The notes below the pieces were generated by a model, which saw nothing but the letters and a program-made list of their open reading frames with translations, searched no databases and was not told where the DNA came from. Positions 4,153 to 59,336 of a stretch of DNA of 64,000 nucleotides are shown here, one piece after another (the stretch's first letter is position 1; every line of letters starts with the position of its first letter). The position numbers and the translations under genes were made by a program. This DNA is from Escherichia phage vB_EcoM_JS09: the sequence record NC_024124.2, one strand, 5' to 3'.

Positions 4153-4202
4153 GTTTACTTCTCCTCTAGTTGTGTTACTATAGACCTTGTCAACTAGAGG
4201 AG
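4153..4202 (+). promoter_or_regulatory. Early promoter with flanking inverted repeat (PeSL-like cassette) upstream of regB
   Basis: GTTTAC -35, TACTAT -10; arms CTCCTCTAGTTG / CAACTAGAGGAG, the second containing the SD. Confidence 0.55.
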
Positions 4203-4209
4203 AAACCAA

Positions 4210-4668
4210 ATGACTATCAATTCGGAAGTTTTTATCCGCCGTAATAAACTCCGTCGAATCTTTGAAACGGAGTTCCGCAAAATAAATGCCGGTATAAAAG
4301 ATGCTGCAAAGTCTCTTGGACTACCAGGCTTTCATATCAAGTATTCTCAACATCTCTTAGATCGTGCCATCCAGAGAGAAATAGATGAGAATTACGTTTT
4401 TGAATTATTTCATAAAGTAAAAAATCATGTTAAAGAAGTTGCAGAATTTTTATCAATGCCGGCACGTCCAGATGTTGATGAAGATTTTGTCGAAGGTGTC
4501 GAATATCGCCCAGGCCGTTTAGAAATAACTGATGGAAATCTTTGGTTAGGACTTACAGTTTGTCGCGAAAATCCAGCATTCAAAATGAAGACTCTTCAAT
4601 GTAGAATGGCTATTATTAACAGTAAACGACTACCAGGAAAAGCTTCTAAAGCAGTGATTAAAATCTAG
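4210..4668 (+). CDS. regB: Sequence-specific endoribonuclease RegB
   Basis: MTINSEVFIRRNKLRR...KYSQHLLDRAIQREID...RPGRLEITDGNLWLG matches recalled T4 RegB; SD gaggag. Confidence 0.85.
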   Translation: MTINSEVFIRRNKLRRIFETEFRKINAGIKDAAKSLGLPGFHIKYSQHLLDRAIQREIDENYVFELFHKVKNHVKEVAEFLSMPARPDVDEDFVEGVEYRPGRLEITDGNLWLGLTVCRENPAFKMKTLQCRMAIINSKRLPGKASKAVIKI

Positions 4669-4676
4669 AGGTAAAC

Positions 4677-5219
4677 ATGAGAAAAGCACTACTCGCTGGT
4701 CTATTTGCTCTTTCGTTATCAGCACATAGCTCCGAGCATACTTTTAGTAATGTCCAACTCGATAACTTGAATTATGCTTATCAGTTTGGGGAACAGTTTT
4801 CTAAGGACGGAAAATTTAAAACGCATGAAAATATGCATAAGAAAGGACTTGGATACATAATGGCCGCAATACTATGGCAGGAATCATCTGCTGGTATTAA
4901 TCTTAAAGATAAGAAAGGTCACCATGCGTATGGAATGTTCCAAAACTATCTACCAACAATGAGGGCAAGAATTAACCAGCTTGGTTATAATATGACTGAT
5001 GCCCAAATTAAGAAAATGCTATCTAAGCGGTCTAATTCAACCAGATGGGCTTATATCGAATTTTCTTATTGGTTAAATATACATAATGGGGATATAAGAA
5101 AAGCTATATCCTCATACAATGCGGGATGGAAGACAAGTGCTGGAAGTAAATATGCTTCTGAAGTCCTAGAAAAGGCTAATTACCTTAAATCAAATAAACT
5201 ACTGGAAATAAAAGAATGA
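4677..5219 (+). CDS. Secreted lytic-transglycosylase-like protein (SLT-type motifs)
   Basis: Signal peptide MRKALLAGLFALSLSAHS; motifs WQESSAG, GMFQ, SYNAGW resemble SLT domain. Confidence 0.55.
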   Translation: MRKALLAGLFALSLSAHSSEHTFSNVQLDNLNYAYQFGEQFSKDGKFKTHENMHKKGLGYIMAAILWQESSAGINLKDKKGHHAYGMFQNYLPTMRARINQLGYNMTDAQIKKMLSKRSNSTRWAYIEFSYWLNIHNGDIRKAISSYNAGWKTSAGSKYASEVLEKANYLKSNKLLEIKE

Positions 5220-5563
5220 CCAAAGTGTTGGCTTTAATAGTTGGCTTGGTTTCATTTAACGCTCTTGCTAATACTACATATACTGATGTAACGGAGTATA
5301 CAAACAGAACGGCGTCTGATTATTGTGGTAAAAGTCAAGAGTGTAAAGTAGATTTTTCACAAAAATTGTTATATGCGTATAAAGACGGAGAAAAAGATGG
5401 GGCGTCTAGTAGGTTCAAGGCGTCTACCTTAATTAAAAGATACTATAAAAAATGGCAAATATTAGAATGCTCGGTGGCGGAACCTAAAGATAAGGCAGCA
5501 TGCAATTCTATGGTGGACCGTCTAGTTGACTCTTATAATAGAGGACTTGCAGCAAGTGATTAA
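5216..5563 (+). CDS. Secreted/periplasmic hypothetical protein
   Basis: N-terminal signal-like MTKVLALIVGLVSFNALA; ATGA overlap with upstream gene. Confidence 0.45.
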   Translation: MTKVLALIVGLVSFNALANTTYTDVTEYTNRTASDYCGKSQECKVDFSQKLLYAYKDGEKDGASSRFKASTLIKRYYKKWQILECSVAEPKDKAACNSMVDRLVDSYNRGLAASD

Positions 5564-6023
5564 AAACTATATCAAGGGCGATATTGTCGCCCTGTTTTCT
5601 AAAGGTAATAATATTGCTCATGGGTGTAATTGTTTTCATACAATGGGCGCCGGTGTAGCAGGCCAATTAGCAAAGGCTTATCCAAAAATTTTAGAAGCCG
5701 ATAAACTTCAAACCGAATTCGGAGACAAGTCTAAACTCGGGACTTATTCGGTTTATGAAAAATATTTTAAGACCCATAAAGCTTATTGCTTTAATCTTTA
5801 TACGCAGTTTGAGCCGGGACCTAATTTTGAGTACTATGCTTTAATGAATTGTATAATAGAATTAAATGAATTCGGAAAGAATAAGATAACAAAGCCTGTA
5901 ATTTATATGCCAAGAATTGGTGCAGGTATCGGTGGCGGAAACTGGGATGTCATCGAAGAGATTTTAGACACATATTCCACTAAACTAGAAATTGTGATTG
6001 TTGATTGGGAACCATTATTATGA
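5556..6023 (+). CDS. Macrodomain protein (TARG1/DarG-like ADP-ribose hydrolase fold); start uncertain
   Basis: HGCNCFHTMGAGVAGQL and MPRIGAGIGGGNWDVI resemble TARG1-type macrodomain motifs; ORF opens at TTG 5526, GTG 5556 chosen after SD gagga. Confidence 0.55.
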   Translation: MIKNYIKGDIVALFSKGNNIAHGCNCFHTMGAGVAGQLAKAYPKILEADKLQTEFGDKSKLGTYSVYEKYFKTHKAYCFNLYTQFEPGPNFEYYALMNCIIELNEFGKNKITKPVIYMPRIGAGIGGGNWDVIEEILDTYSTKLEIVIVDWEPLL

Positions 6024-6232
6024 ATATACATTATCCACATCCATATGACCCAAAGAATAAGGCAGTAATTATTCGTCAATGGGAACGCATTTGTCGTACC
6101 AAATGTCCAATTAATAGTCCACACGATGTAGATAAAGACTACATCGGAACATTCGTTGAATATACCTTTATTGATAAGAAAGGCCGTAAACAACATGTAG
6201 AAGAATATTGCTTAAAGGTGACATGGTTATGA
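6020..6232 (+). CDS. Hypothetical protein
   Basis: 70-aa ORF, ATG overlaps upstream stop (TTATGA). Confidence 0.4.
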   Translation: MNIHYPHPYDPKNKAVIIRQWERICRTKCPINSPHDVDKDYIGTFVEYTFIDKKGRKQHVEEYCLKVTWL

Positions 6233-7796: not shown

Positions 7797-7861
7797 CATT
7801 TAGCAGTTTACTTCTCCTCAGGTTGTGTTATAGTAGTCCTTACTTACTAGAGGAGAACGTT

Positions 7862-8041
7862 ATGTCACGTAAAGAAAAAATTTCTAAGTTAATGTTTTTG
7901 ATTGAAGAGTACGCTAATGCTGTATCTGATTGGGAAAATGCTCATGGTTGCGAAGATGGAGACATCGACATTAACAGAGCTATGAAAAAGATGACCGATG
8001 CCCACACCGAATTGCAAATGTATGTTAACGAGATTATGTGA
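7862..8041 (+). CDS. Hypothetical protein
   Basis: ATG 7862 with SD gaggag inside ORF 7823-8041. Confidence 0.4.
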   Translation: MSRKEKISKLMFLIEEYANAVSDWENAHGCEDGDIDINRAMKKMTDAHTELQMYVNEIM

Positions 8042-8304: not shown

Positions 8305-8520
8305 ATGTTATATGACCCAAGCGGCAATTTTGAAAATGGTGTGATTGTTCTGGAGCCTGAGCATCCAGTTGGTGACGTATACCGCCCAGTTGAAGTATGC
8401 GAATGTAATTTTGTTAAAGGTAATACTGGCGGAATTTCCATTGAGCAAGACGATGATGTTATTTACCTGGATGCAAGCCAAGTAGAAGCTCTTTATAGCA
8501 TTTTAAAACACAATCGGTAG
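8305..8520 (+). CDS. Small protein, paralogue of 8049-8213
   Basis: Shared N-terminal motif; ATG 8305 inside ORF 8230-8520. Confidence 0.4.
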   Translation: MLYDPSGNFENGVIVLEPEHPVGDVYRPVEVCECNFVKGNTGGISIEQDDDVIYLDASQVEALYSILKHNR

Positions 8521-8558
8521 TTTACAACTTGGTAGGACTATGTTATAGTAGTCCTACC
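8520..8558 (+). promoter_or_regulatory. PeSL-like early promoter cassette
   Basis: GTTTAC then GGTAGGACT-atgttatagt-AGTCCTACC inverted repeat. Confidence 0.5.
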
Positions 8559-8684
8559 AAAACAAATGGAGAACAAAATGAAACTTTTGCTTATCGTTTA
8601 TGTTATAGTACAATACAATTATCCAATGTTTACTTATAACATGGTAAATGGCATAGTGAATCTTATTGAAACGAGTATGGTAAA

Positions 8685-11184: not shown

Positions 11185-11282
11185 TTTAGGGGGTTAAAAT
11201 ATTTTTAAAAAAGTAGTGTACATGCTTTTAGGATATGTTATTATAGACCTATCGAAACGAAATGAGTAAATTGGAGAATAAA

Positions 11283-12263
11283 ATGTTCAACGTTCAAATC
11301 AAAAAAGGTATCTATCGTAATAACGAAATCTCTGGTTCTTATGTTGCCACAAAGACCTGGTTCCCGGCAAAGCTTAATCCTGAATGTTCCCACTTAGGTG
11401 ATGGTAAAATTTTCGTTATGATTGATGGTTCTGAACGTGGAGTATGGGTCTTCAAATCAGACATCGTAATGGAAGGAGTTGAGACGTCACCAGTTGCAGT
11501 TGTTGAAAGCACTGAAGATATGAAAACTCGTATCAACAAACGCTTTAAAGTAATGAACATGATGACGAATGGCATTATCGATGGCAAAATTCGTTCACTC
11601 ATTATTTCAGGTGCAGCTGGTATTGGTAAGACGTATTCTCTGGATAAAGCACTTAATAATGCTAATGATAATGGTTTCATCAAATACAAAAGCATTAATG
11701 GTAAAATCTCCGGTATTGGCCTTTACGAACAACTTTGGCTCAACCGTGATGCAGACAGCGTTCTCTTAATCGACGACGTTGACGTATTCTCAGATATGGA
11801 CATCTTGAACCTTCTTAAAGCAGCATTAGATACTGGAGATAAACGCAAAGTTTGCTGGAGCACTGCGTCATCTTATCTCGATGATAAGGGTATTGATAAA
11901 GAATTTGAGTTTGAAGGTACTATCGTTTTCATTACAAACGTTGATATCGATAAAGAGTTAGAACGCGGTTCGAAACTTGCCCCACACCTTCAAGCTTTAG
12001 TATCTCGTTCAGTGTATCTCGACCTCGGAGTACACTCTAATGAAGAGATTATGGTTCGAGTTGAAGATGTAATATTATCTACTGACATGATGCAGAAACG
12101 TGGTCTGACTGATGCAGAAACGTATAAAGCATTGTCCTGGATGAAGGCTAACGTATCTCGTCTTCGCAATGTATCATTACGTACGGCTCTTTATGTAGCA
12201 GATTTTATTTCAACTGATAAAGATGGTTGGGAGGAAATCTCTGAAGTAACTTTACTGAAATAA
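11283..12263 (+). CDS. AAA+ ATPase-like protein
   Basis: Walker A GAAGIGKTY, Walker B LLIDDVDVF; ATG 11283 with SD ggag. Confidence 0.65.
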   Translation: MFNVQIKKGIYRNNEISGSYVATKTWFPAKLNPECSHLGDGKIFVMIDGSERGVWVFKSDIVMEGVETSPVAVVESTEDMKTRINKRFKVMNMMTNGIIDGKIRSLIISGAAGIGKTYSLDKALNNANDNGFIKYKSINGKISGIGLYEQLWLNRDADSVLLIDDVDVFSDMDILNLLKAALDTGDKRKVCWSTASSYLDDKGIDKEFEFEGTIVFITNVDIDKELERGSKLAPHLQALVSRSVYLDLGVHSNEEIMVRVEDVILSTDMMQKRGLTDAETYKALSWMKANVSRLRNVSLRTALYVADFISTDKDGWEEISEVTLLK

Positions 12264-12691: not shown

Positions 12692-12740
12692 GTTTACAAG
12701 GTCTATGATTATGTTATTATAGACCTATCAACTACTGGAG
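12692..12740 (+). promoter_or_regulatory. PeSL-like early promoter cassette
   Basis: GTTTAC, AGGTCTAT...ATAGACCT inverted repeat, shares TGTTATTATAGACCTATCAACTACTGGAG with the 45802 copy. Confidence 0.5.
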
Positions 12741-12747
12741 GTAAAAC

Positions 12748-13275
12748 ATGAACGCTAAAGATATTTTCAACCTGGTAAATTATAACGACGGTAAATTTAA
12801 ATCTGAAGCACAAAGCAAGTTCTTTAATGACGTTGCTTATGGTAACGAGATTACCGTAGACGGAGGTCAGATTTTCAAATCTCGCTGGAATTGGATTGCT
12901 ATCATCGATTCAGTTGGAATTGTGGAAGTCTACAAAAACACTAACAAAAAACGTACATTATTCTGGTCTCGTGAAACTAACGAGCAGTACAAAAAGGATA
13001 AAGCATCTCGTTTATCCAAAGTAACCCAGGAAGATATCGAGTTTATCAAGAAAGATATCGAGATGTACGAAAATTTAATCGCTGAAGACCAGGCAGTACT
13101 CGATAAGTTTGATGAAATTAAAGCTTCTCGTGAAATCCCTGACTTCATGAAAGAAACAGTAAACGAACGATACGCTCTCACTTCAGAACGTATTGCAAAC
13201 TATACAAAACAGAAAGCAGAACGTATTAGTACTCTTCGGAAATTTGAAGAACGTTTAAAGACGGTTCACGCATAA
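12748..13275 (+). CDS. Hypothetical protein
   Basis: SD ggagg; promoter cassette upstream. Confidence 0.5.
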   Translation: MNAKDIFNLVNYNDGKFKSEAQSKFFNDVAYGNEITVDGGQIFKSRWNWIAIIDSVGIVEVYKNTNKKRTLFWSRETNEQYKKDKASRLSKVTQEDIEFIKKDIEMYENLIAEDQAVLDKFDEIKASREIPDFMKETVNERYALTSERIANYTKQKAERISTLRKFEERLKTVHA

Positions 13276-13277
13276 AC

Positions 13278-13302
13278 GCTTTACCCAAGGACGGGTTATA
13301 AT
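13278..13302 (+). promoter_or_regulatory. Promoter cassette (GCTTTAC ... TATAAT)
   Basis: GCTTTACCCAAGGACGGGTTATAAT, related to the CCAAGGATGG family. Confidence 0.4.
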
Positions 13303-13337
13303 GGTTTTGAGTTCCAATTCAATCTGAGGAAATAGTT

Positions 13338-14333
13338 ATGAGCATTACATCTGATGCGGTAAAACATGAAATTAACGGTTTATGTGCTTCACAGATTAAA
13401 GTGTGGTTTAAAGACCATAATGATCGCAGAGCACTTAATTATGAGCAAATTGCTATCCAAGTTCATCAATTATTGACTAGTAAATTTGATTTTCATATGC
13501 CGTCTGAAATCTATACTAATCTACCGCGAGCGCTTATTAAAGCGTGTAAAGGTTACGGAAAATCAATGGCCGATGGAATCTTCAGCGCGCTGAATAAACT
13601 TAACGTTCTGTCGATGATTAACTCTAATAACATCCTGCGTAATCTAGGACGTACTGATTTGTTCGGTCGTGAACAGTGTAAAATGCCTTTGAAATGGATT
13701 GTTGCTCATCTTAACGAGAACCAAACACGTTTTATGGCCGTATCAGCACGCTTACAAATGGGCCTAGATCGTCAGATGAACTTTAAAACTCATCCACGTT
13801 ATTCAGGTTCAACAGACTTTTATAAATGTGAGCTTCAAAAGGTTGCAGGTAAAACTGTCTTAGTAGTTCGTGTAACGTTTGAAGGACGACGTCAAGGATA
13901 TTTTGACCTAATCGGCTCTGGTCTTAAACATTGTGGATTTATTGACGAAGTTGTTATAAAGCGAGACGGCATTGGATATCGTATTGGATATGTTTGTACT
14001 CTTAAAGAAGAGATTTCAGGTCCAGCACCAGGACTAAAAGACGTTAGATATAAAGACGAGCTCGTTGAAGAAATAAAAGAAGTTGAATATGATATCAACC
14101 AAGAAGATGCTCTTAAAGACCTTATTGATGAACTAAACCAAGACGTTATTCCGGTTCAAAAATTTGAATCAAAACATGCTGAGCAAATCAAATACTTTGA
14201 AGCTTTGATTAACGAACTTAATGTAACTATTCAACAGACTGATGATGAAATCTCACGATTAGCAGGCTTAAACGGTAAAAATAAAACAGAACGAGCTAAT
14301 CTTATTCAAGTAGTAAAACTTCTTAAGGAATGA
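13338..14333 (+). CDS. Hypothetical protein with C-terminal coiled-coil
   Basis: 331 aa; SD gagga; cassette GCTTTAC..TATAAT upstream. Confidence 0.5.
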   Translation: MSITSDAVKHEINGLCASQIKVWFKDHNDRRALNYEQIAIQVHQLLTSKFDFHMPSEIYTNLPRALIKACKGYGKSMADGIFSALNKLNVLSMINSNNILRNLGRTDLFGREQCKMPLKWIVAHLNENQTRFMAVSARLQMGLDRQMNFKTHPRYSGSTDFYKCELQKVAGKTVLVVRVTFEGRRQGYFDLIGSGLKHCGFIDEVVIKRDGIGYRIGYVCTLKEEISGPAPGLKDVRYKDELVEEIKEVEYDINQEDALKDLIDELNQDVIPVQKFESKHAEQIKYFEALINELNVTIQQTDDEISRLAGLNGKNKTERANLIQVVKLLKE

Positions 14334-14362
14334 TGTACAACCAAGGATGGTTGGAGTATAAT
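14334..14362 (+). promoter_or_regulatory. Repeated promoter cassette, CCAAGGATGGTTGGAGTATAAT family
   Basis: TGTACAACCAAGGATGGTTGGAGTATAAT; near-identical copies at 15329, 57193, 57752. Confidence 0.55.
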
Positions 14363-14388
14363 AAATTTTTCAACATGAGGAATATAAA

Positions 14389-15324
14389 ATGGCTTCTATT
14401 ACACGTAGAGAACTTATCAAAGAATTTACCTCGAACGCATATACCCCAGGTCCTAATCCTATCCGTATGCCTGTAAAGACTCCTGAAGAGATTGAGGAAA
14501 TCTGTTCATATTATGGGATTACTTCTCGTAAGTTTACTCAATTTGAATGCGTTACTAACACACCCGTTAAAGAGTTCATTAAAAATGGTGAGTTCAGCCG
14601 TTTATTAGCCAAACAGAAACTTCGTAATTTTTGTATTGGCGGTGAAGGACAATATTTCGCTAAGCAGTTCAGGAATAACCTTAACAATCTGATGGCCATT
14701 GCTTCTCGTATTCGTCCTCAAGCAATTAACATGAAACATTTGAAATATACTTACGATAAGTTAGAAATCATGGTTATCAGTGAGAACGAGTTCACTCTTA
14801 CGTATAAACCTAAGAATGATAACGTTGCTCGTGTATTCCACCAAGCGTTGGAAGTGTTAGGTGATAATATCCACCAGATTAAAGCAATTTATTCTCGTGA
14901 GCTTAATATTATCAACCCTATCAAGAATAAGGGCCATATCGCTATCCAGGCTCGTGTATCTATTGGTAAAAAGGTTCCTGCGCCATGGTGGCACAAAGAC
15001 TCTGAATACTATCAAAATCTTAAAAAGGAAAATGCCACGTTCGAAGCGTCAATTACTACAACCCCAATTGGCAATGCTGAAGTTCAAGGTGCATATTTTA
15101 CTGCTCCATCTATATACACTTCACCGTCGACTAAACTGGAAATCTCTAACGGTCTTCTTCCTGCCGAAGATTACCATTACAATCAAATCAAGGCCACTAT
15201 GGACAAACTGTCTGTTGAACTTGACAAAGCACAAGCTAAGCTTCGTGATGCTCAAAGTGTTGTAACGAATCTCCAGTTGCAGTATTCTAAACTTTTTAAC
15301 GCAATGAATGCATTAAAATCATAA
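14389..15324 (+). CDS. Hypothetical protein with C-terminal coiled-coil
   Basis: 311 aa; preceded by CCAAGGATGGTTGGAGTATAAT cassette. Confidence 0.5.
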   Translation: MASITRRELIKEFTSNAYTPGPNPIRMPVKTPEEIEEICSYYGITSRKFTQFECVTNTPVKEFIKNGEFSRLLAKQKLRNFCIGGEGQYFAKQFRNNLNNLMAIASRIRPQAINMKHLKYTYDKLEIMVISENEFTLTYKPKNDNVARVFHQALEVLGDNIHQIKAIYSRELNIINPIKNKGHIAIQARVSIGKKVPAPWWHKDSEYYQNLKKENATFEASITTTPIGNAEVQGAYFTAPSIYTSPSTKLEISNGLLPAEDYHYNQIKATMDKLSVELDKAQAKLRDAQSVVTNLQLQYSKLFNAMNALKS

Positions 15325-15328
15325 AATA

Positions 15329-15358
15329 GTTTACAACCAAGGATGGTTGGAGTATAAT
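15329..15358 (+). promoter_or_regulatory. Repeated promoter cassette, CCAAGGATGGTTGGAGTATAAT family
   Basis: GTTTACAACCAAGGATGGTTGGAGTATAAT. Confidence 0.55.
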
Positions 15359-15386
15359 GAATCTATCTTAACGAGAGGAAAATATT

Positions 15387-16337
15387 ATGACACGTTCACA
15401 TTACATTGATTATTTTGCAGGTCTTATCGCTAACGTTCATGCTCAGCGCGCTACTGGTGCACTAGGATTTGATGTTCCACACCGAGATGTAGTAAGTGGT
15501 ATTCTTCGAGATTTTGGCACATACACAGGTCAAGAAAATCATATCTGTAAAGATACTCAGAATGCGTATTCTCATTCATTAGGGACACTGCTTCATTGGT
15601 TCAAACGTTCTCGTTTATTATCTTCTACTGTGGCTCGTGATAACATTAAAAACTTTATGAAGCCGAGCTTTATTAAATCTGTGACATCTAAAACTGATTT
15701 GGTTGAATTTACTATTATTAACGATGTTAAAAAGACTCATTTGGCTGATTGGTTATCTACCATTCCTGAAACTAAATTTGCTGATAAATTTGCTTGTGAA
15801 TTCAATAACCAAGTGAATATGCTTTTTAAACATTCACGTAAATTATTCACAGGCGGTGATGGTCGTACAAATAAAGTTCATGTTAAAGATTGGGTTACTG
15901 CAGTATTCAAACCAACTGGTAATGGTAACGCATCATTGTCAATTGATATCCAGGTTCCTTATTACTACTCACGTAATCTCGGTACCATGAAAGCCGAAGA
16001 AATTAATAAGCGCAACAAAACCGTTCGTTCGCTGTCTTATAAACTTCGTATGATGTTACAGACTATGGATGTTGTTGAAATGTTCAGCGAAACTGAAGAT
16101 AATGGTTCAATGTTATTCAGTTCTCGTATTCAAATTAAGCTGAAGAACCCTAATACGTATAAACCTAAGCCTATTAAAGAGCCTAAAGCAGAAAAAGTTG
16201 ATAACTTAAGAGAAGAACGCGAATATCTCAAATCTCGTCTGAAAGAAGTCGAAGCCCAGATTGCAGAACAAACTAAATCGTTAAAAGCTCTGAATGCGAA
16301 AGCGGATGGCTTACGAAATGCCATTGAGGTGTTATAA
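15387..16337 (+). CDS. Hypothetical protein with C-terminal coiled-coil
   Basis: 316 aa; preceded by GTTTAC..CCAAGGATGGTTGGAGTATAAT cassette. Confidence 0.5.
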   Translation: MTRSHYIDYFAGLIANVHAQRATGALGFDVPHRDVVSGILRDFGTYTGQENHICKDTQNAYSHSLGTLLHWFKRSRLLSSTVARDNIKNFMKPSFIKSVTSKTDLVEFTIINDVKKTHLADWLSTIPETKFADKFACEFNNQVNMLFKHSRKLFTGGDGRTNKVHVKDWVTAVFKPTGNGNASLSIDIQVPYYYSRNLGTMKAEEINKRNKTVRSLSYKLRMMLQTMDVVEMFSETEDNGSMLFSSRIQIKLKNPNTYKPKPIKEPKAEKVDNLREEREYLKSRLKEVEAQIAEQTKSLKALNAKADGLRNAIEVL

Positions 16338-17792: not shown

Positions 17793-17963
17793 ATGCAAGT
17801 TAAATTATTATACCGTTTATTAAAAAATGGCAAGCATGATTGGTATTTGCTTATTAAAACCGATCCGAATTTTTTCTCTGGACAACCATTTACAGTTCGT
17901 CCTACTAAACGTCAGCTTCGCAAAGCTAAACGTTCTCATCGTAACTTTTATAGAGAATATTGA
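17793..17963 (+). CDS. Small basic protein, RPTKRQ-motif family
   Basis: C-terminal FTVRPTKRQLRKAKRSHRNFY; SD gggaagag. Confidence 0.45.
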   Translation: MQVKLLYRLLKNGKHDWYLLIKTDPNFFSGQPFTVRPTKRQLRKAKRSHRNFYREY

Positions 17964-17964
17964 T

Positions 17965-18378: not shown

Positions 18379-18387
18379 GGGCTTATT

Positions 18388-45363: not shown

Positions 45364-45426
45364 CGGGGTTTACATCTTCCTCTAGGCATGATATGATGTA
45401 CTTACACCAACCAAGAGGAAAACATT

Positions 45427-45801: not shown

Positions 45802-45850
45802 GTTTACTTCTCCAGTAGTTGTGTTATTATAGACCTATCAACTACTGGAG
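45802..45850 (+). promoter_or_regulatory. PeSL-like early promoter cassette
   Basis: GTTTAC, TATTAT -10, arms TCTCCAGTAGTTG / CAACTACTGGAGA. Confidence 0.55.
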
Positions 45851-45856
45851 AACAAA

Positions 45857-46174
45857 ATGAAAACCATCGATTGTAAAGCAGAATTTAAGATTTTTTATCA
45901 CGGTTCAAGTAGTTCAGCTAACATCGAAAACATGCTTTGTCCTCCTGAAGAAACAGGAGTTCTGTCTGAAACAGGACGTAAGAAAAACTTGGATCGTGTA
46001 TTCTTTACCGAAGATATCGGTTTAGCAAAGATTTATGCAGGACGAGCAGCACGCTCTTATGGAGGTGAACCACGTCTCTATCGAGTAATTTCTCCGGTAG
46101 ATGTAGTTCAAATGAATAATACTAAAGGTGCTACAGTTTATCACGCTGAATGGGCATTTTGCGAGGAAATATGA
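45857..46174 (+). CDS. Small ART-fold-like protein (HGS motif, Tpt1/KptA-like)
   Basis: IFYHGSSSS...GRAARSYGGEPRLYRV resembles the catalytic half of Tpt1/KptA ADP-ribosyltransferase-fold proteins; weak. Confidence 0.35.
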   Translation: MKTIDCKAEFKIFYHGSSSSANIENMLCPPEETGVLSETGRKKNLDRVFFTEDIGLAKIYAGRAARSYGGEPRLYRVISPVDVVQMNNTKGATVYHAEWAFCEEI

Positions 46175-46362
46175 GCAAATTAACTAAAGTTACTTTTATT
46201 GGCTGGTTTAAAAATGATAATACGTTCACTAAAGATATCATGTTATCAGGTGACCGTGAAGAAATCGAGTGGGTTGCGGTACAACTTGCTGAAGTGAACA
46301 AAGCATTAGTTAAAGCATTTGTTAATGACGAGAAAGTTTTTGAAGCTGATTTCAGAGGATAA
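46171..46362 (+). CDS. Hypothetical protein
   Basis: ATG 46171 after SD gagga; ATGA overlap. Confidence 0.4.
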   Translation: MSKLTKVTFIGWFKNDNTFTKDIMLSGDREEIEWVAVQLAEVNKALVKAFVNDEKVFEADFRG

Positions 46363-46363
46363 T

Positions 46364-46576
46364 ATGTATTCAACTGTGTTTAAACCATCAACATACGAAT
46401 TTGCATCAACTACACAATGGAAAGCTCTTATTCTGGAAGGATGGGAACTAATGATGGACTGTGAAGCATCTGAAAAGTTTCCACACGGCAAAGTGGACTT
46501 CGTTAAATTTGCTGTACGTCCGACTAAACGACAGATTCGTCAAGAAAAACGCAAATTTCGCAAAAGTTTAAAATAG
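46364..46576 (+). CDS. Small basic protein, RPTKRQ-motif family
   Basis: C-terminal FAVRPTKRQIRQEKRKFRKSLK. Confidence 0.45.
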   Translation: MYSTVFKPSTYEFASTTQWKALILEGWELMMDCEASEKFPHGKVDFVKFAVRPTKRQIRQEKRKFRKSLK

Positions 46577-46636
46577 CTGTTTACAAGCACCACATACTGT
46601 GTTACTATCTTTCTATCAACTACAGAGGAAATTGAA

Positions 46637-47005
46637 ATGAAAAAATTAATCGCTTTAGCAATGGTATTTGGATTAACCGGATGTGGTGCCCATGGCTTTA
46701 TCCCTAATAACGTCGGCCAATTGATTTACAATCCGAATGTTAAACAGTACGACCAACCTAAAGTTGAAGTGGAAGACCCGGTTACTGTAGGTAATCGAAT
46801 GATTCAAGCTGATGCCCATGCTCAACGTTATCGTGACTCTGATACTGTAGCATTGTCAAAAGAACAACGCGTTAAAGAACATTGTCTACAGGCTACTGAA
46901 ATCGCATTCATTCGCTATGTTGAAACAACTGGTAAAGAGCCTACCCAGAAACAAATCGCGAATAACTACGTCCAGTGTATTGAACGTTTAAACAAATTTA
47001 ATTAA
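46637..47005 (+). CDS. Putative lipoprotein
   Basis: Signal peptide with lipobox MKKLIALAMVFGLTGC. Confidence 0.55.
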   Translation: MKKLIALAMVFGLTGCGAHGFIPNNVGQLIYNPNVKQYDQPKVEVEDPVTVGNRMIQADAHAQRYRDSDTVALSKEQRVKEHCLQATEIAFIRYVETTGKEPTQKQIANNYVQCIERLNKFN

Positions 47006-47066
47006 TTGGTTTACACCAAAGTTAAAACAAGATACTATAAACATAACAAATCAAGAGGAAATTAAC

Positions 47067-47315
47067 ATGGAATTATTCGTAGCTAGTTCAGTAGCAGTTT
47101 TAATCGCAGGTATTGGTTCAATCATCATTTACATGCTGCCTTGGGTAATCGCACTTATTCGTGGCACAAAAAGCACAACAGCAATCTTCTTTGTATCTTT
47201 ACTCTTTAACTGGACGATGGTTGGTTGGATTGGAACTTTAATTTGGTCTATCGTTGCCGAAAAGAAATCGGCTCAGCAGCCTCAACAAGTAATTATTATT
47301 CGCGAAAAAGAATAA
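47067..47315 (+). CDS. Small membrane protein (two helices)
   Basis: SVAVLIAGIGSIIIYMLPWVIALI and FFVSLLFNWTMVGWIGTLIWSIV. Confidence 0.5.
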   Translation: MELFVASSVAVLIAGIGSIIIYMLPWVIALIRGTKSTTAIFFVSLLFNWTMVGWIGTLIWSIVAEKKSAQQPQQVIIIREKE

Positions 47316-47378
47316 ACTTGTTTACATTATAGATGGACTATAGTATAGTAGTCCTATCAAATCAACTAAGGAGTTAAA

Positions 47379-47672
47379 ATGAAAAAGTTATCATTGGCAG
47401 CAATCTTACTTGCAGTATCATGTGCACCGGCTCCAGTTACGGCAGGTTATGATAAAGACCTCTGTGAGTGGTCAATGACTGCAAATCAAGAAGATGTTGA
47501 ACAACAAATCTTCTCTGATATCATGAACATCACTAAACGAGACCGTCCTAATATGGTTAATAAAGTTGTTGAACAACTTAAGTCTGGCGGTATCATGCAG
47601 TACAACTATGTTTTGTATTGTGACCCTAATTTCGATAACAAAGATATCGTAACCGAAATCACAGGTGAATAA
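47379..47672 (+). CDS. Putative lipoprotein / periplasmic protein
   Basis: Signal peptide MKKLSLAAILLAVSC; T4 spackle lies in this neighbourhood (identity not verified). Confidence 0.5.
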   Translation: MKKLSLAAILLAVSCAPAPVTAGYDKDLCEWSMTANQEDVEQQIFSDIMNITKRDRPNMVNKVVEQLKSGGIMQYNYVLYCDPNFDNKDIVTEITGE

Positions 47673-51196: not shown

Positions 51197-51262
51197 TTTC
51201 TACAGTTTACAACCACTAAAAACTGTGTTAAGATATTATTACTTACTCAAGAGGAGAACAAT

Positions 51263-51490
51263 ATGTTAAATCGTTGGATTAAACCTAATAACACATTAGG
51301 TGCTTTGATTGCTCAAGAAGTTTCGTTGAAATATGGTCTTGGATATTATGACGACGTAGTCGTACACTCATTCATGATGGATGGTGAAGACGTCAAATTT
51401 AATGCCGAAATCCGTTGGGATGATGGTGGTGTTCGTTTTGTTCGAGGAACAATTAATGCTTACGATGCTGAAGAAGTTGTTTGCTGTTAA
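51263..51490 (+). CDS. Hypothetical protein
   Basis: ATG 51263 after SD gaggag; terminator + early promoter upstream. Confidence 0.4.
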   Translation: MLNRWIKPNNTLGALIAQEVSLKYGLGYYDDVVVHSFMMDGEDVKFNAEIRWDDGGVRFVRGTINAYDAEEVVCC

Positions 51491-52513: not shown

Positions 52514-52729
52514 AAGAGAAATTGAAAGAGAAATTCTTACTAGAAATCAAGGAAAAAGACTTTGAGACATGGTATCGAATGGTGAAAGGGCTGACATTGC
52601 TTTTTAAAGCATCGTTATTCATGTTAGAACAACCTGGTCCTGATGGGCCTTTAGTAGGAAAGCTTAAAAAGTAGTTTACATTCCCTCCTCTCGTGTTATG
52701 ATAGGCTTATCTTTAAATGGAGGTCTATC

Positions 52730-53311
52730 ATGACATGTCAATCTGAACTTCAAGAACGCGAATACCTAACAAATCTGATTGATAGCAAATTCACCCGCCA
52801 AGAACAAAACATTCTCTGGGCCTGCACCGATTCTAAGGAAGACCCGGATTTCCACTATGAATTAGACCATCTTGTTCGTAAGCATATGACTTCTACAGTG
52901 CCAGTAGAACTCTACCGTGGTGTAACTCCAGAAGAAGTAGAACGTCTTTCCCTTCTTTCTGTGGGATGCCATTGGTCTCCTGGACGAGTAACATCGTTCA
53001 CAACTGATTTCAGTACAGCTCGTCAATTCTCCGGGAGATGGGAATATCAGACGTACACTATTCTTAGTCTCAGGAATGCTCCATTCATTTTTGATTACTA
53101 CCAAAACATGGTTAACATTGTACTTGCCGGAAAGAACCCTAAGCATGTTATGGAAGAAACGCGTGTTGACGTCCTAGATATGATTGAATCTGAACAAGAA
53201 TACATGGTCTCAGGTATCTCTAGATTTGAGATTGCGGAAATTGAAGAGTTAGAGTATGACCCTTTGTCTCGAGTATACAAAATCATTCACTTAAAGATGT
53301 TGAATTTTTAG
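52730..53311 (+). CDS. modB: ADP-ribosyltransferase, ModB-like (by position and R-S-E motifs)
   Basis: YRG, FTTDFSTA, EQEYMV motifs; tandem paralogue of next gene. Confidence 0.55.
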   Translation: MTCQSELQEREYLTNLIDSKFTRQEQNILWACTDSKEDPDFHYELDHLVRKHMTSTVPVELYRGVTPEEVERLSLLSVGCHWSPGRVTSFTTDFSTARQFSGRWEYQTYTILSLRNAPFIFDYYQNMVNIVLAGKNPKHVMEETRVDVLDMIESEQEYMVSGISRFEIAEIEELEYDPLSRVYKIIHLKMLNF

Positions 53312-53368
53312 TGTACAAACTCTACCTACGATGATACTATACTTTTATCAACCACAGGAGAAACCTAA

Positions 53369-53977
53369 ATGTTTATGCCGTATAACGAGTGTGAAATTGA
53401 AGAAATGGTTCGTCGTGCTCAAAACCCCGAATATCAAGATGTATTGCAGTACGAAATTGATAGTCAATTCAGCGACATTGAACAAAGTGTACTGTGGCAG
53501 TGTATGGAAAACAAGCCAGACTGTATTCAACAGGAGTTAAGTTCAATCGTTCGTAGAAATTGGACGTCTTCTGTTCCTGAGACAATGTATCGTGGAATCT
53601 CTAAGAAAACTATGGCCACACTCGATGATAAAGGTATTGGTAGTATTATTAAATTTGACAGAGTAATGAGCTTCAGCCCAGTGTTCGGTGTAGCACGTAA
53701 CTTTGCTTCGTATAATTTTTACGGAACATTTAATATGTTCTGCATCAAAGATGCACCATTTGCTTTCAACTTCCGTGAACATATGCTTAATATGATTCTG
53801 GCTGCACCATCTTGTGAGTTCAATGGAGCTTTCCCTGAAGCGACAAGACGGTCTAATGCTAGACTTATATCTGACGAATGTGAATTTATGCTCCCTATAG
53901 GGACTACACTGCATGTAGATTCTATTATTCAAGATGGACGTTATACAATCTGGAATCTGTCTATTGTCAGTTACTGA
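53369..53977 (+). CDS. modA: ADP-ribosyltransferase, ModA-like (by position and R-S-E motifs)
   Basis: YRG, SFSPVFG, ECEFML motifs; paralogous to 52730-53311. Confidence 0.55.
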   Translation: MFMPYNECEIEEMVRRAQNPEYQDVLQYEIDSQFSDIEQSVLWQCMENKPDCIQQELSSIVRRNWTSSVPETMYRGISKKTMATLDDKGIGSIIKFDRVMSFSPVFGVARNFASYNFYGTFNMFCIKDAPFAFNFREHMLNMILAAPSCEFNGAFPEATRRSNARLISDECEFMLPIGTTLHVDSIIQDGRYTIWNLSIVSY

Positions 53978-54129
53978 CTGAATTGGAATAACCGGATGGA
54001 ACTCAGAACCATTATAACACATAAAAAATTAAAGCATTTTATGAAAAAAGAGTGTACACTACCTGAGGGCATGATATTATAAGCTTATCAGCTAAATGAC
54101 CTAACGTCCGTAAGACAGAGGAAAATATT

Positions 54130-54876
54130 ATGTTGTCAAATAATAAAATTAACAAAATCAATCGTCGTCTTGACCACACCAGAGCTTCTGCGAAGAGACG
54201 CTCTAAGGATTTTAACTTAGACTTTAATTACCTTAAAAACATTCTTGATCAAAAGGTCTGCGCTTACTCAGGTGAATCTTTCAATAACTCTGTTGAAGGT
54301 GAGAAATTATCCTTAGAACGTTTTAATAACGATATCGGCTACATTAAAGGTAATGTTATCCCGGTTAAGAAAAAATATAACACGGCTCGTTCTGATTTAA
54401 CATTAGAAGAACTTATTGAGAAACGTGATGCCATTGCAAGACGTATCGCTAATCCTTCTGCCCGTAAAGTAGAGAAACTTAATCTCGACGAGAAGAAATG
54501 GGCCCAAATTAAAAAGGTTTATGGTACTATTTTAAAAATCCGAGCAAAACGTGAAAATCGTGTTAAGCATATGGCAAACATGATGAAAAATCAACCTTTA
54601 TCTAACGAATCTAAACTTAGAATTGTTGCTTTGAAAGCACGCATTAATGGCTCACATCAAGCAGAAGGCCATGAACTTACTAAACTCAACGTTCTTCTTA
54701 AAGGCTCTGACTGGAAAACTAAAACTAAATTAACTGACGCTGAATCGCTTTTCGATACATATGATAAAGTTATCCAAGGTCTGCAACGTTTTGAAAAGAT
54801 TGGTTTCATTGGTAAATTAAAATTGAAACGTGGCTTACCACTTAGCGCATCATTATTCCAACTGATTAAAGGTTAA
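54130..54876 (+). CDS. Basic hypothetical protein at T4 srd position
   Basis: 248 aa lysine/arginine-rich; lies between modA-like and dda; identity not verified. Confidence 0.4.
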   Translation: MLSNNKINKINRRLDHTRASAKRRSKDFNLDFNYLKNILDQKVCAYSGESFNNSVEGEKLSLERFNNDIGYIKGNVIPVKKKYNTARSDLTLEELIEKRDAIARRIANPSARKVEKLNLDEKKWAQIKKVYGTILKIRAKRENRVKHMANMMKNQPLSNESKLRIVALKARINGSHQAEGHELTKLNVLLKGSDWKTKTKLTDAESLFDTYDKVIQGLQRFEKIGFIGKLKLKRGLPLSASLFQLIKG

Positions 54877-57192: not shown

Positions 57193-57222
57193 GTTTACAA
57201 CCAAAGATGGTTGGAGTATAAT
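57193..57222 (+). promoter_or_regulatory. Repeated promoter cassette, CCAAGGATGGTTGGAGTATAAT family
   Basis: GTTTACAACCAAAGATGGTTGGAGTATAAT. Confidence 0.55.
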
Positions 57223-57253
57223 CTTTCCATCTTAACCAAACAGGAAAAACATT

Positions 57254-57748
57254 ATGAATATCGATACTACGGCTACTTACATCCTGAAAGACGAAAAACA
57301 AATCAACTGGTACGGTGCTTCAGTGCGAGCTTATGAAAAGTTTTGTGAAATTTTAGGTGCCACTCAAGGTAATAGTTTCACTATTGTTAACTTCATCAAA
57401 CAAGCTGAAGGCCCTTGGTTATTCTTAGAAATTAAAAATTCATATGGTACAATTTCTACTACTGCCATCCCAAGCACCGACTTTGAACTGTTGATTGAAG
57501 AAGCACCTGTTAAAGATGGTCTCCACTTTGATATGGATATCGTTTGTATGTACGGTACTCTGATTAAGCCTATTGAGCCTACTGATTTATTGTGTAAATA
57601 TGTTTCAATTCGACGCCCATTCGATGGTCCAGTAAATGGATGGGTAACTGACCAGTGGATTGAAGATGGGGTTGAACTTCTGAACGTTGTTCATGCCGGT
57701 GATTTTAGTGTAGTTCCACGTAGTGCTGTGGTTAATATTCTAAATTAA
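57254..57748 (+). CDS. Hypothetical protein, member of tandem paralogue triad
   Basis: C-terminal VTDQWIEDGVELLNVVHAGDFSVVP shared with next two genes. Confidence 0.5.
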   Translation: MNIDTTATYILKDEKQINWYGASVRAYEKFCEILGATQGNSFTIVNFIKQAEGPWLFLEIKNSYGTISTTAIPSTDFELLIEEAPVKDGLHFDMDIVCMYGTLIKPIEPTDLLCKYVSIRRPFDGPVNGWVTDQWIEDGVELLNVVHAGDFSVVPRSAVVNILN

Positions 57749-57751
57749 TGT

Positions 57752-57780
57752 TGTACATCCAAGGATGGATGGAGTATAAT
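57752..57780 (+). promoter_or_regulatory. Repeated promoter cassette, CCAAGGATGGTTGGAGTATAAT family
   Basis: TGTACATCCAAGGATGGATGGAGTATAAT. Confidence 0.55.
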
Positions 57781-57810
57781 GAATTCAACTTAAACAAAGA
57801 GAGAAAAATT

Positions 57811-58266
57811 ATGATTACTATTGGTGAAATTAAGCGTGTATCAATTGCATCCCGGTCTAAAGCCGCAGGTCGTCTGGTTGAAGTTATCGGACTTCGCACA
57901 AATGGCATGGGACGTATTAAAGAAGTTAAAGTTCGAATCATTCCTAGTTTTGGACGTCAGGATACTCAGTACGCTTACGTAAGTCCTAAATTCCTGGAAA
58001 CTCGTGTGAGCGCTCCATCTGCTTCTACTGAACCTAATGTACAGTTCAAATGGGCCTTGTGTAAAGGTGTTGAATTCCAGACTGATAAAGAATTTGACTT
58101 CATCGATGAATACGGTTATCCAAGCAAAACTGATACCATGTGTGGCTTCATTAGTGACCAATGGGTCGAAGATGGTGAAAAGTTATACAATATCGTATTC
58201 TTAGGTGACTTCCGAGTTGTTAAAGAATCTGAAATCACTCGCTATGTGTCTCCTCGTAAAGCTTAA
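57811..58266 (+). CDS. Hypothetical protein, member of tandem paralogue triad
   Basis: ISDQWVEDGEKLYNIVFLGDFRVV; ATG 57811 inside ORF 57748-58266. Confidence 0.5.
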   Translation: MITIGEIKRVSIASRSKAAGRLVEVIGLRTNGMGRIKEVKVRIIPSFGRQDTQYAYVSPKFLETRVSAPSASTEPNVQFKWALCKGVEFQTDKEFDFIDEYGYPSKTDTMCGFISDQWVEDGEKLYNIVFLGDFRVVKESEITRYVSPRKA

Positions 58267-58275
58267 GGAATTATT

Positions 58276-58695
58276 ATGAATATTGTAAATCTCTCTACAG
58301 GTGATTACGTATATGTATCTGTTGCTTCTCGCTCTAAAGTTGCCGGGAAGTTGGTAGAAGTTCTTTCTGTGAGTGATCCGGTTTTTGGTCGTAACCAAGT
58401 TAAAGTTCGTGATGCTAATGGTAATATTGGCTACGTCTCAAGCCAGTTCATTGAGCCGGAAGAACGTGCGTTCAAATGGAAACTGTGCAGGTCTGTTTTA
58501 GTTGTAAAAGACCATGAATTTACTATTGCTGCTGCAACTGACGGGTCTCCATGGACAACGAATCAAGTTGCTGGTTTTATTTCGGACCAATGGGTTGAAG
58601 ATGGTGTTAAGCTTTATAACATCGTTTTCGCTGGACAGTTCATGGTAGTTCCTGAGTTCCAAATCAAAAAATATTGTCCAGCATCTTTTGCATAA
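58276..58695 (+). CDS. Hypothetical protein, member of tandem paralogue triad
   Basis: ISDQWVEDGVKLYNIVFAGQFMVV; N-terminal VSVASRSKVAGKLVEV shared with 57811 gene. Confidence 0.5.
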   Translation: MNIVNLSTGDYVYVSVASRSKVAGKLVEVLSVSDPVFGRNQVKVRDANGNIGYVSSQFIEPEERAFKWKLCRSVLVVKDHEFTIAAATDGSPWTTNQVAGFISDQWVEDGVKLYNIVFAGQFMVVPEFQIKKYCPASFA

Positions 58696-58754
58696 AGTTG
58701 TTTACTTCTCCTCCGGTTTTGATATTATAACCATATCAACCAGAGGAGAATAAT

Positions 58755-59279
58755 ATGTTAGTTTACCGCGTAGAACGTAGTTTTTGTACTCAACGTGAAT
58801 CATTACCAGGAATTGCTATCAAAGACGGTAAAGCCGTCAGAATTTGGGAAACCTCTTGGAATAAAGAACCTCGTTCGCCATACGGTTGGTCGGGCACCGA
58901 CAACTCTGAAGAAACATGGGAGTTCCTTGATAAGCATGGAATACTCTCAGGTAACTTCTACCATCACGGCGACAACTATAATGTCCCTAATCGTCCTACA
59001 GTAAATGAAGACAAACTCCTTGAACAAAATATCTTAAGATACTATAGAATTGATTACACATTTGAATTGAGTGAAGATTGGGCTCAAGGGTTCTATTTTG
59101 GATTTGAAAGTGTTGACGCGGTTTATGCATGGTTTGATGACCAGGTGGATGTTGAACTCTTGAAAGCTAAAGGATACTACATCGCGGTCTATGAAGCACC
59201 TGATTTCATCCTCGGAAGTTGTCAATTAATGTTCAGACGTTCATTGGCAGAACAAGTTGATTTTATTTTGCTAAAATGA
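58755..59279 (+). CDS. Hypothetical protein
   Basis: SD agaggag; promoter cassette upstream. Confidence 0.5.
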   Translation: MLVYRVERSFCTQRESLPGIAIKDGKAVRIWETSWNKEPRSPYGWSGTDNSEETWEFLDKHGILSGNFYHHGDNYNVPNRPTVNEDKLLEQNILRYYRIDYTFELSEDWAQGFYFGFESVDAVYAWFDDQVDVELLKAKGYYIAVYEAPDFILGSCQLMFRRSLAEQVDFILLK

Positions 59280-59336
59280 TGTACAACAACTATGGTCTAT
59301 GATACTATAGACCTATCAAAACAAGAGGAGAATATT

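Follow-up and report, generated by a model that had tools for sequence, protein, structure and literature searches.

Promoter and stem-loop cassettes in the early region of an RB69-like coliphage: known early modules, many with a hairpin that probably masks the ribosome-binding site

The DNA considered here is a stretch of 64,000 nucleotides from Escherichia phage vB_EcoM_JS09 (sequence record NC_024124.2), termed the window. It is matched at 96-98% identity by Mosigvirus genomes (the RB69 group of T4-type phages, many of them deposited as Escherichia phages) and represents the early region of such an RB69-like coliphage. Short repeats combining a promoter with an inverted repeat recur between its genes. 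What kind of element are they, what do the stem-loops do, and do the repeats help genes to come and go? A first-pass annotation of the sequence had likened them to the promoter-early stem-loop (PeSL) cassettes proposed to mediate modular gene shuffling in T4-type phages; its observation is partly confirmed and its interpretation partly supported. We consider it likely that the cassettes are PeSL-type immediate-early expression modules. The repeats are real and, judged from sequence, functional, and the kind of element is already known. In many of them a conserved hairpin probably hides the Shine-Dalgarno sequence (SD) on read-through transcripts, according to modelled RNA folding.

There are about 55 intergenic gaps of at least 35 nt. 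Inspection of all intergenic gaps reveals an early promoter followed by an SD and ATG in 25, each a complete cassette. The cassettes are about 60 nt long (55-66) and are packed directly behind the preceding stop codon, which in 17 of the 25 lies at -1 to +5 nt of the -35 element. The promoter would be a strong one of the T4 kind, served by host sigma-70. The layout is an A-rich upstream tract, GTTTAC, 17-18 nt, TGnTAnnnT, a leader of about 20 nt, a GGAG-type SD and the ATG of a non-essential early gene, with the consensus tttnataaAntaGTTTACA, spacer, TgTGnTAttATannccTAtCaa, then aagaGGAaAAtAannATG. AT content in the 20 nt upstream of the -35 is 75%, against 63% window-wide, and the extended -10 TGn occurs in 19 of 25 cassettes. 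We placed the transcription start at the A of a conserved ATCAAC, 7 nt past the -10. A sigma-70-like promoter with an AT-rich tract, an SD and start codon at the 3' end and an intergenic position, all features of PeSLs, are thus present.

Matches to GTTTAC-N16-19-TAnnnT number 30 on the + strand and 14 on the - strand, where Markov-chain nulls give 10 +/- 3, and the top families (D1-D9) of an unbiased direct-repeat search are the cassettes. A generic sigma-70 scan displays no enrichment in the window (70 against 69 and 74 against 66 expected); the T4-specific consensus alone is enriched, and the generic scan is useless for finding cassette promoters in DNA so rich in AT. The T4 early promoter combines UP, -35 GTTTAC, TGn and -10 (Hinton 2010, PMC2988021), and 57 early promoters had already been predicted in RB69, with a logo C-rich at -3 to -1 (Nolan et al. 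2006, PMC1524935). The cassettes resemble them in the A-rich -40s, GTTTAC, TGn, the C-rich -3 to -1 (AGACCT) and in the same downstream genes. What the searched passages (PMC1524935, PMC2988021) do not describe is complementarity between spacer and leader, or recombination junctions.

All 14 coordinates named in the first-pass annotation carry the sequence ascribed to them. The 29-bp core TGTTATTATAGACCTATCAACTACTGGAG that it reported as common to copies 12692 and 45802 is exact and is found at 12712 and 45822 only (0 expected). A second family, B, has the core TACAWCCAARGATGGWTGGAGTATAAT exactly four times (0 expected) as proposed, but the relative assigned to it at 13278 is a middle promoter with a MotA box, outside the 25. 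The list of copies was sound as far as it went; it lacked 12 more, at 610, 1207, 1913, 11216, 22404, 45368, 46579, 47009, 51205, 52674, 53311 and 54052. Since a motif search places 610, 1207 and 1913 upstream of 4153, given as the start, the feature begins at 610. Of the nine copies of family A, whose distal arm was said to contain the SD, this holds for four (4153, 7806, 45802 and 58700); at 8520, 12692, 23531, 47320 and 59280 the hairpin clamps the -10 and the SD is unpaired.

The hairpins fall into classes. In the G1 anti-SD class (n=8: 610, 1913, 4153, 7806, 22404, 45368, 45802 and 58700) the SD region (nnnnnnnnGGAGAA) is paired with spacer sequence directly behind GTTTAC, typically TTCTCCnnnnnnnn. 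The cassette at 52674, where the ATG is masked, is counted with this masking group, giving nine that pair SD or ATG. In the G2 or -10-clamp class (n=5: 8520, 12692, 23531, 47320 and 59279) the arms flank the -10 and the SD is free. Family B (n=4: 14333, 15329, 57193 and 57751) carries a mini-hairpin of 5-6 bp inside the spacer. Five cassettes are hairpin-free (1207, 11216, 46579, 47009 and 51205) and two, 53311 and 54052, have weak structure only and stand outside every hairpin class. The stems are AT-rich with loops of 8-18 nt, and most are perfect Watson-Crick so that either strand could fold. Hairpins of the G1 and G2 type, 52674 included, occur in 14 cassettes, 11 of which beat spacer shuffles at p<=0.03, which supplies the stem-loop of a PeSL. 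The cassettes are given below with minimum free energy (mfe) and the predicted probability that the SD is paired, P(SD paired), in read-through RNA or in RNA from the cassette's own start.

610..669, + strand: before denV; G1 anti-SD hairpin in which TTCCTCCAA pairs with TTGGAGGAA; P(SD paired) 1.00 in read-through RNA, 0.63 in own-start RNA; spacer-shuffle p<0.005
1207..1269, + strand: before an internal-protein-like gene; hairpin-free
1913..1970, + strand: before a window-specific small open reading frame (ORF); weak G1 hairpin; falls within segment 1638-2140, which is replaced in 5/5 relatives
4153..4212, + strand: before regB; 14-bp G1 hairpin TTCTCCTCTAGTTG / CAACTAGAGGAGAA; mfe -21.3 kcal/mol; P(SD paired) 1.00 read-through, 0.25 own-start
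7806..7864, + strand: before mobD.2a; mismatched G1 hairpin; intrinsic terminator upstream at about 7770-7800
8520..8580, + strand: before a 36-codon ORF; 13-bp G2 hairpin clamping the -10, SD free; mfe -21.4 kcal/mol; spacer-shuffle p<0.005; P(SD paired) 0.13
11216..11285, + strand: before nrdC.10; GTGTAC as -35; hairpin-free; terminator upstream; duplicated around ORF102c in RB69
12692..12750, + strand: before nrdC.8; G2 hairpin AGGTCTAT / ATAGACCT; 29-bp core in common with 45802, whose 5' arm is missing here
14333..14391, + strand: family B, before nrdC.5; mini-hairpin AACCA-AGGA-TGGTT within the spacer
15329..15389, + strand: family B, before nrdC.3
22404..22463, + strand: before a gene 55.6 homologue; G1 hairpin; terminator upstream
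23531..23594, + strand: before an ORF075c homologue; ATGTAC as -35; 11-bp G2 hairpin CGATAGGAAGA / TCTTCCTATCG; mfe -18.4 kcal/mol; spacer-shuffle p<0.005
45368..45429, + strand: before an ORF041c homologue; weak G1 hairpin; terminator upstream
45802..45859, + strand: before an ORF040c homologue; 14-bp G1 hairpin TTCTCCAGTAGTTG / CAACTACTGGAGAA; mfe -21.7 kcal/mol; P(SD paired) 1.00 read-through, 0.32 own-start
46579..46639, + strand: before imm.1; hairpin-free
47009..47069, + strand: before imm; hairpin-free
47320..47381, + strand: before sp (spackle); G2 hairpin GGACTA / TAGTCC
51205..51265, + strand: before mrh.2; hairpin-free; strong terminator upstream at 51166-51187
52674..52740, + strand: before modB; pairing between the -10 and start-codon regions, mfe -22.5 kcal/mol; the same in T4 modB
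53311..53371, + strand: before modA; GTGTAC as -35; weak structure only
54052..54132, + strand: before srd; GTGTAC as -35; longer leader of 43 nt; weak structure only
57193..57256, + strand: family B, before a motB.1-like gene
57751..57813, + strand: family B, before motB; the -35 overlaps the preceding stop codon
58700..58757, + strand: before motB.2; G1 hairpin with a single C-A mismatch; an IMG/VR orthologue has a perfectly paired hairpin
59279..59339, + strand: before cef; ATGTAC overlapping the upstream TGA stop; G2 hairpin GGTCTAT / ATAGACC

Is the pairing itself maintained? When the spacer alone is shuffled, SD pairing has p<=0.005 at 610, 4153, 7806, 45802 and 58700; mfe has p<0.005 at 8520, 23531 and 47320, with 59279 at p=0.01 and 12692 at p=0.02. 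The cassettes are more structured than 78 control start regions of the same window (Mann-Whitney p=0.003), and strong masking of the SD is observed in 6/25 cassettes against 1/78 controls (Fisher p=7e-4). In a partner swap, spacers fold with their own leaders at -10.3 kcal/mol and with the leaders of other cassettes at -7.4 kcal/mol, a difference reached in 0/20,000 permutations (p ~5e-5). A search of IMG/VR, with a pattern that fixed GTTTACTTCTCC and GGAGAA only, yielded ten distinct variants, and their unconstrained inner arms are again partner-specific (p=2e-5).

The cassette of regB extends the comparison across genera. Its helix is kept in four of them despite differing sequences, by way of compensatory changes, and the arms are as follows.

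Mosigvirus, regB arms: TTCTCCTCTAGTTG / CAACTAGAGGAGAA
T4, regB arms: TTTTCCTCTTGACTG / CAGTTAAGAGGAGAA
Dhakavirus, regB arms: ATCTCCTGTAG / CTACAGGAGAT
Kanagawavirus, regB arms: ATCTCCTTTTAGT / ACTAAAAGGAGAT

In an alignment anchored on the -35 and GGAG rather than on structure, 84% of cells pair as opposed to 40-53% with a slid partner, two-sided changes occur in 9/14 pairs, and 0/500 shuffles reach the observed values. Alignment of full cassettes with MAFFT and RNAalifold fell out of structural register and recovered 4 pairs only, and the motif-anchored arm alignment was used instead. All three arrangements exist in T4 as well: regB and motB.2 have G1, modB has the -10/ATG form, and dmd and motB have G2. 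The arrangement of spacer and SD is kept by compensatory change across at least four Tevenvirinae genera, with T4 regB, motB.2 and modB among the examples. On this sequence evidence the stem arms are under selection for pairing, in G1 and G2 alike.

How might such hairpins operate? Transcription from the cassette's own promoter would begin inside the loop or the 3' arm, and because the arms straddle the -10 the resulting RNA would lack the 5' arm and be unstructured. Read-through RNA from upstream would carry both arms and for this reason, in the G1 class and at 52674 (where the ATG is concerned), would bury the ribosome site. Folding agrees with this in that predicted P(SD paired) for G1 falls from 0.94-1.00 in read-through RNA to 0.2-0.7 when the RNA begins at the cassette's own start; for 8 cassettes the predicted masking persists, again at 0.94-1.00, with 150 nt of upstream sequence added to the fold. 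Translation of the gene would then depend solely on its own early promoter, as a short burst that closes with promoter shut-off and cleavage by RegB, and a buried GGAG would be shielded from RegB on the long RNAs. For the G2 hairpins the SD remains free, and they could serve as attenuators or as protectors of the 3' end of the upstream mRNA.

The link to RegB rests on the leader. RegB cuts early mRNAs at GGAG in SDs and secondary structure protects against it (PMC3014915); the consensus of strong sites is GG*AGRAYARAA (Durand et al. 2006, PMC1702504). In the window GGAG occurs in the start region of 13/25 cassette genes and of 9/97 other genes (p=9e-6), and GGAGRAYARAA is matched at 10 or more of its 11 positions in 5/25 cassette genes and 1/97 others, as for GGAGAACAAAA at 8520 and 45802. 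This enrichment belongs to the leader and not to the repeat family as such, and cleavage here is predicted from sequence. An early promoter that is active only briefly transcribes regB, the enzyme cleaves its own SD, and expression of the gene is tightly limited (PMC3014915). With the known action of RegB, the enrichment gives the cassette the look of a module for immediate-early bursts, in which a strong promoter and a short leader are combined with a self-destructing SD.

A similar logic of masking is established for T4 e, soc, 49 and I-TevI (PMC3014915). There, the SD or AUG is folded away in a helix on long transcripts that start upstream, as predicted here, and a proximal promoter starts inside the structure so that its transcripts alone are translatable, as the predicted geometry suggests for the cassettes. 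The difference is one of timing; in those genes the internal promoter is late and delays expression, whereas the cassette promoters are early and would confine it to the first minutes. The cassettes do not carry the late promoter TATAAATA, which is confined to the gene 49 site at 18568-18605. At that site the late promoter is followed by a hairpin, ACCCTTA...TAAGGGT, holding the SD of the homologue of gene 49 (endonuclease VII). This is the known T4 arrangement, with the ribosome site masked on early read-through RNA, and the site is an internal positive control for the masking logic, which in the cassettes would apply to early promoters in place of late ones.

The second question, that of recombination, was approached by aligning the homologous regions of five relatives (APCEc01, vB_VIPECOMC06, RB69, EP02SG and BEU50) to the window, with chaining that allowed overlapping high-scoring segment pairs. 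Among 28 distinct indels or replacements there are three cassette-to-cassette crossovers and a fourth event that starts at the ATG of a cassette. The gene at 45427-45801 is missing in VIPECOMC06 and EP02SG; the partners are cassettes 45368 on the left and 45802 on the right, the junction is 45424/45847, and the hybrid follows cassette 45368 to CCAAGAGGA and then GAACAAAATG of cassette 45802, which places the crossover in the SD. The gene at 57254-57748 is missing in VIPECOMC06, with partners 57193 on the left and 57751 on the right and the junction at 57260/57754. Here the sequence of 57193 runs through TATAAT and then becomes that of 57752, a crossover in the family-B core with a homology overlap of 63 nt. 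In RB69, a copy of cassette 11216 stands on either side of ORF102c (11223-11287), with the crossover in TGTTATTATAGACCTATC. The fourth event, in VIPECOMC06, deletes the gene behind cassette 22404 from ATG to next ATG (22461/22640) and fuses the cassette to the next gene.

Endpoints of indels lie in cassettes in 6/51 cases where 1.7 are expected (P=0.011), and the crossovers fall in the shared cores, the -10 core and the SD, not in the arms. Since the junctions lie inside cassettes, the conserved cores of 12-30 nt act as homology handles by which single genes come and go along with working expression signals. The shuffling suggested for the cassettes is therefore visible in relatives as crossovers, but only 4/28 indel events touch a cassette and the route is that of a minority. 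The core replication block at 24-45 kb has no cassette and 3/28 indels, and the 25 cassettes share their intervals with the other 25 indels. The further suggestion that the cassettes mark hyperplastic intervals and flank accessory ORFs agrees with this cassette-free block; it is overstated in that the genes behind most cassettes are not variable ORFs but conserved early genes of T4 (regB, denV, modA/B, srd, imm, sp, cef and motB). Among insertions found only in relatives, that of RB69 ORF102c alone contains an early cassette. The six insertions of 600-1075 bp between conserved genes in BEU50 contain none.

Several observations weigh against the reading of the cassettes as early modules with SD-masking hairpins. 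The transcription start is placed by analogy with T4 and RB69. SD or ATG is masked in only 9/25 cassettes, five hairpins do not mask and five cassettes are hairpin-free, so SD masking is not the sole function of the stem-loops. In a comparison of sense and antisense folding energies, meant to separate selection on RNA from selection on DNA, a preference for the sense RNA is clear only in the T4 copies and three copies of the window (Wilcoxon p=0.18 overall). Translation that ends 7-11 nt before the 5' arm could let the ribosome partially open the outer pairs, which contain the SD. A cassette is uninvolved in 24/28 indels. The stem-loop of an RB49 PeSL was reported to behave like a terminator in a reporter assay (PMC2839356).

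That reporter leads to the role assigned to the stem-loops in the original PeSL proposal, as transcription terminators or attenuators that leave each gene driven by its own promoter only; in a transcriptional fusion the RB49 element cut lacZ expression as much as rrnB T1 (PMC2839356). The hairpins of the window are indeed positioned exactly between genes, and the G2 class, which leaves the SD untouched, needs a role other than SD masking. However, T runs are absent behind the + strand cassette hairpins and a terminator scan calls none of them, so the PeSL terminator role has no sequence support here. The stems are AT-rich with loops of 8-18 nt, genuine terminators with GC stem and T run stand as separate structures upstream of 7806, 11216, 22404, 45368 and 51205, and the identity of the G1 3' arm with the SD across four genera would be needless in a terminator. 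Cassettes behind these real terminators do not clearly differ in the presence of a hairpin, five cases only being available. Termination is in our judgement rather unlikely. We rate somewhat higher, though still tentatively, an effect on RNA stability, in which the hairpins shield an internal GGAG from RegB or act as barriers at 3' ends after cuts by RegB or RNase E. The strong enrichment of GGAG and RegB-consensus SDs in cassettes points this way, as does the protection of GGAG by secondary structure (PMC3014915), and the G2 hairpins end 8-20 nt upstream of GGAG. The argument is purely inferential, however; the hairpin cassettes 22404, 23531 and 45368 have GAGGA in place of GGAG, and regB is dispensable in the laboratory. 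Such an effect is compatible with SD masking and the two may coexist.

Translational coupling, in which the SD becomes accessible only when a ribosome terminates at the neighbouring upstream stop, would fit the position of that stop codon (-1 to +5 nt of the -35 in 17/25 cassettes) and the pairing of the SD with the outermost, stop-proximal part of the 5' arm. Yet the 5' arm begins 7-11 nt past the stop codon and, given the footprint of a ribosome, one terminating there would open at most a few of 14 pairs, which counts against coupling. A strong promoter of its own makes coupling unneeded, the SD is free in the G2 class, and we regard the idea as improbable. Less probable still is an element acting as DNA, either operators for a dimeric regulator or cruciforms that stimulate recombination. 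The inverted repeats do flank the -10, where an operator would act, crossovers do map within cassettes, and most stems are perfect Watson-Crick and foldable in either strand. Arm sequences vary between cassettes while complementarity is kept, though, which makes a shared sequence-specific protein unlikely. Loops of 8-18 nt disfavour cruciform extrusion, crossovers lie in the shared cores and not in the arms, and T4 copies with 3-4 G-U pairs fold 8-11 kcal/mol better as sense RNA. Finally, the hairpins might be functionless, with complementarity arising by chance around a promoter and SD consensus. The five hairpin-free cassettes still look like complete promoters and the generic sigma-70 scan is unenriched, but chance is rejected by the spacer-shuffle, partner-swap and slid-partner controls, with which the compensatory changes across genera agree, and we give it hardly any credence.

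We return to the comparison with PeSLs. The architecture fits the published definition (PMC2839356, PMC4122927): an AT-rich tract, an early promoter, a stem-loop between or over the promoter boxes, SD and ATG. PeSLs likewise are intergenic and clustered among non-essential early genes, and crossovers between the -10 and the SD or ATG move single ORFs. They have been published for RB49/phi1, T4/PST and nt-1/KVP40 and not for the RB69 group (PMC2839356, PMC4122927). The RB49 stems are Gn-loop-Cn and reportedly terminator-like, and in T4/PST the stem-loop is placed just upstream of the promoter, whereas the stems of the window are AT-rich, straddle the -10, lack a T run and in nine cassettes have the SD or ATG as 3' arm. 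The assignment to PeSLs made at the outset thus stands for the architecture and not for the terminator features of the hairpins that the PeSL papers describe.

What is known already and what is new? The early promoters of RB69 date from 2006 and PeSLs, in three other T4-type branches and suggested to be general, from 2010 and 2014. The explicit Mosigvirus junctions, the classification of stem-loops and the evidence of covariation for an anti-SD subset across genera are new. We found no description of anti-SD elements inside early promoters, in searches that covered the older and subscription T4 literature thinly, and a prior description is possible. The finding is solid and instructive, would mostly be expected by a T4 specialist, and adds one mechanistic idea that can be tested. 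That the spacers of many T4-type early promoters double as anti-SD elements, such that each gene is translated only from its own promoter and is masked and RegB-resistant on longer transcripts, is a proposition for which we judge the case evenly balanced. If it is true, PeSL stem-loops would be translational insulators and not terminators. Masking would also explain how dozens of small early genes, regB and modB among them, are expressed in a brief burst within long read-through units; the products of several, these two included, are enzymes acting on host or phage macromolecules by modification or cleavage. A promoter and a translational insulator in the same 60 nt would be a compact design for insulating serial genes. 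For the RB69 group, the junctions document at sequence level how short regulatory cassettes make it possible for a large virulent phage to acquire or shed one gene at a time with expression intact.

The cassette consensus fixes true start codons and so offers an aid to annotation. Cassette positions indicate starts missed by a mechanical ORF list, namely that of the 36-codon ORF at 8578-8688, which is annotated in APCEc01, and that of motB at 57811, favoured over an upstream in-frame ATG at 57748. In family B the hairpin at 57754-57780 differs from those at 14336, 15332 and 57196 by a two-sided change, AACCA...TGGTT to ATCCA...TGGAT, that keeps the pairing or dyad symmetry. The 27-nt core is otherwise near-identical at loci 42 kb apart, which could reflect gene conversion or a conserved binding site.

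Other gaps are of the middle-promoter type. The MotA middle-promoter consensus (PMC2988021) is a box (a/t)(a/t)TGCTT(t/c)A centred at -30 and 11-13 nt before the -10. Such a box is found at 13276 and in the gaps at 24721, 26269, 29523, 30924, 36494 and 60582, and in none of the 25 early cassettes; the gap at 40060-40113 is also of this type.

13276..13340, + strand: before nrdC.6; MotA-box middle-promoter type ACGCTTTA-N12-TATAAT; not an early cassette

Two of these gaps resemble the PmSL elements of phage nt-1. At 24721-24792, before gene 55, an inverted repeat TAGGTCT...AGACCTA straddles the -10, and at 29523-29576, before 45.2, the inverted repeat ATGTGGT-TATAAT-GACCACAT does likewise. BEU50 has an insertion of 806 bp exactly at 29511-29579. 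Upstream of the DNA polymerase gene 43, at 32898-32978, there is a terminator (GGGACTTCGGTCCC) and then TGGAGTATAATAAGTTCATCAAC, repeat family D16, which has the -10 and downstream part in common with family B and lacks a -35 or MotA box. This leader presumably contains the known translational operator hairpin of gp43.

All genes of the window but one lie on the + strand. With the names used for RB69 and T4, the order is e, internal-protein genes, denV, vs.x, regB, vs, tk, rI, nrdC.x, pin and 49; then nrdD/G, 55.x, 55, 47, 46, 45, 44, 62, regA and 43; then an RB69-specific sugar-metabolism block, uvsX, 40, 41, dmd, imm, sp, 61 and 56; and finally soc, mrh, modB/A, srd, dda, dexA, motB, cef, goF and 39. 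Rfam and tRNA scans of the window gave no matches. The sole convincing gene on the minus strand is a 65-codon ORF at 50069-50266 (-), a homologue of RB69ORF029w, in the 282-nt gap from gene 61 to gene 56.

Other repeats and rearrangements were noted in the relatives. The insertions of BEU50 (L008/L009) lie at 9870, 20890, 27595-27834, 29511-29579, 38237 and 62456 and, from size and position, may be homing-endonuclease genes. A 55-nt coding repeat at 17898-17952, 18502-18556 and 46517-46571 encodes the basic C-terminal tails of three small paralogous ORFs. A deletion in BEU50 (17952..18502) ends exactly on the first two copies, with an overlap of 55 nt, and a recurrent deletion (46352..46556) ends within the third; such repeats form another class of recombination handle, one that has nothing to do with promoters. 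Most of modB (52773-53277) is deleted in VIPECOMC06 and EP02SG, with intragenic breakpoints outside any cassette, and modA alone is kept. A 5' coding repeat, ATGAAAAC.TAT.AAGAATTTAT (MKTYxEFI), occurs at 327-356, 1083-1118, 1263-1298 and 1604-1639 and probably encodes the N-terminus that targets internal head proteins to the capsid. These repeats in the internal-protein genes carry the indel and replacement breakpoints at 1087, 1130-1137 and 1630-1638. The segment 1081-1266 resembles a truncated internal-protein gene, and APCEc01, RB69 and EP02SG are 136 bases longer there.

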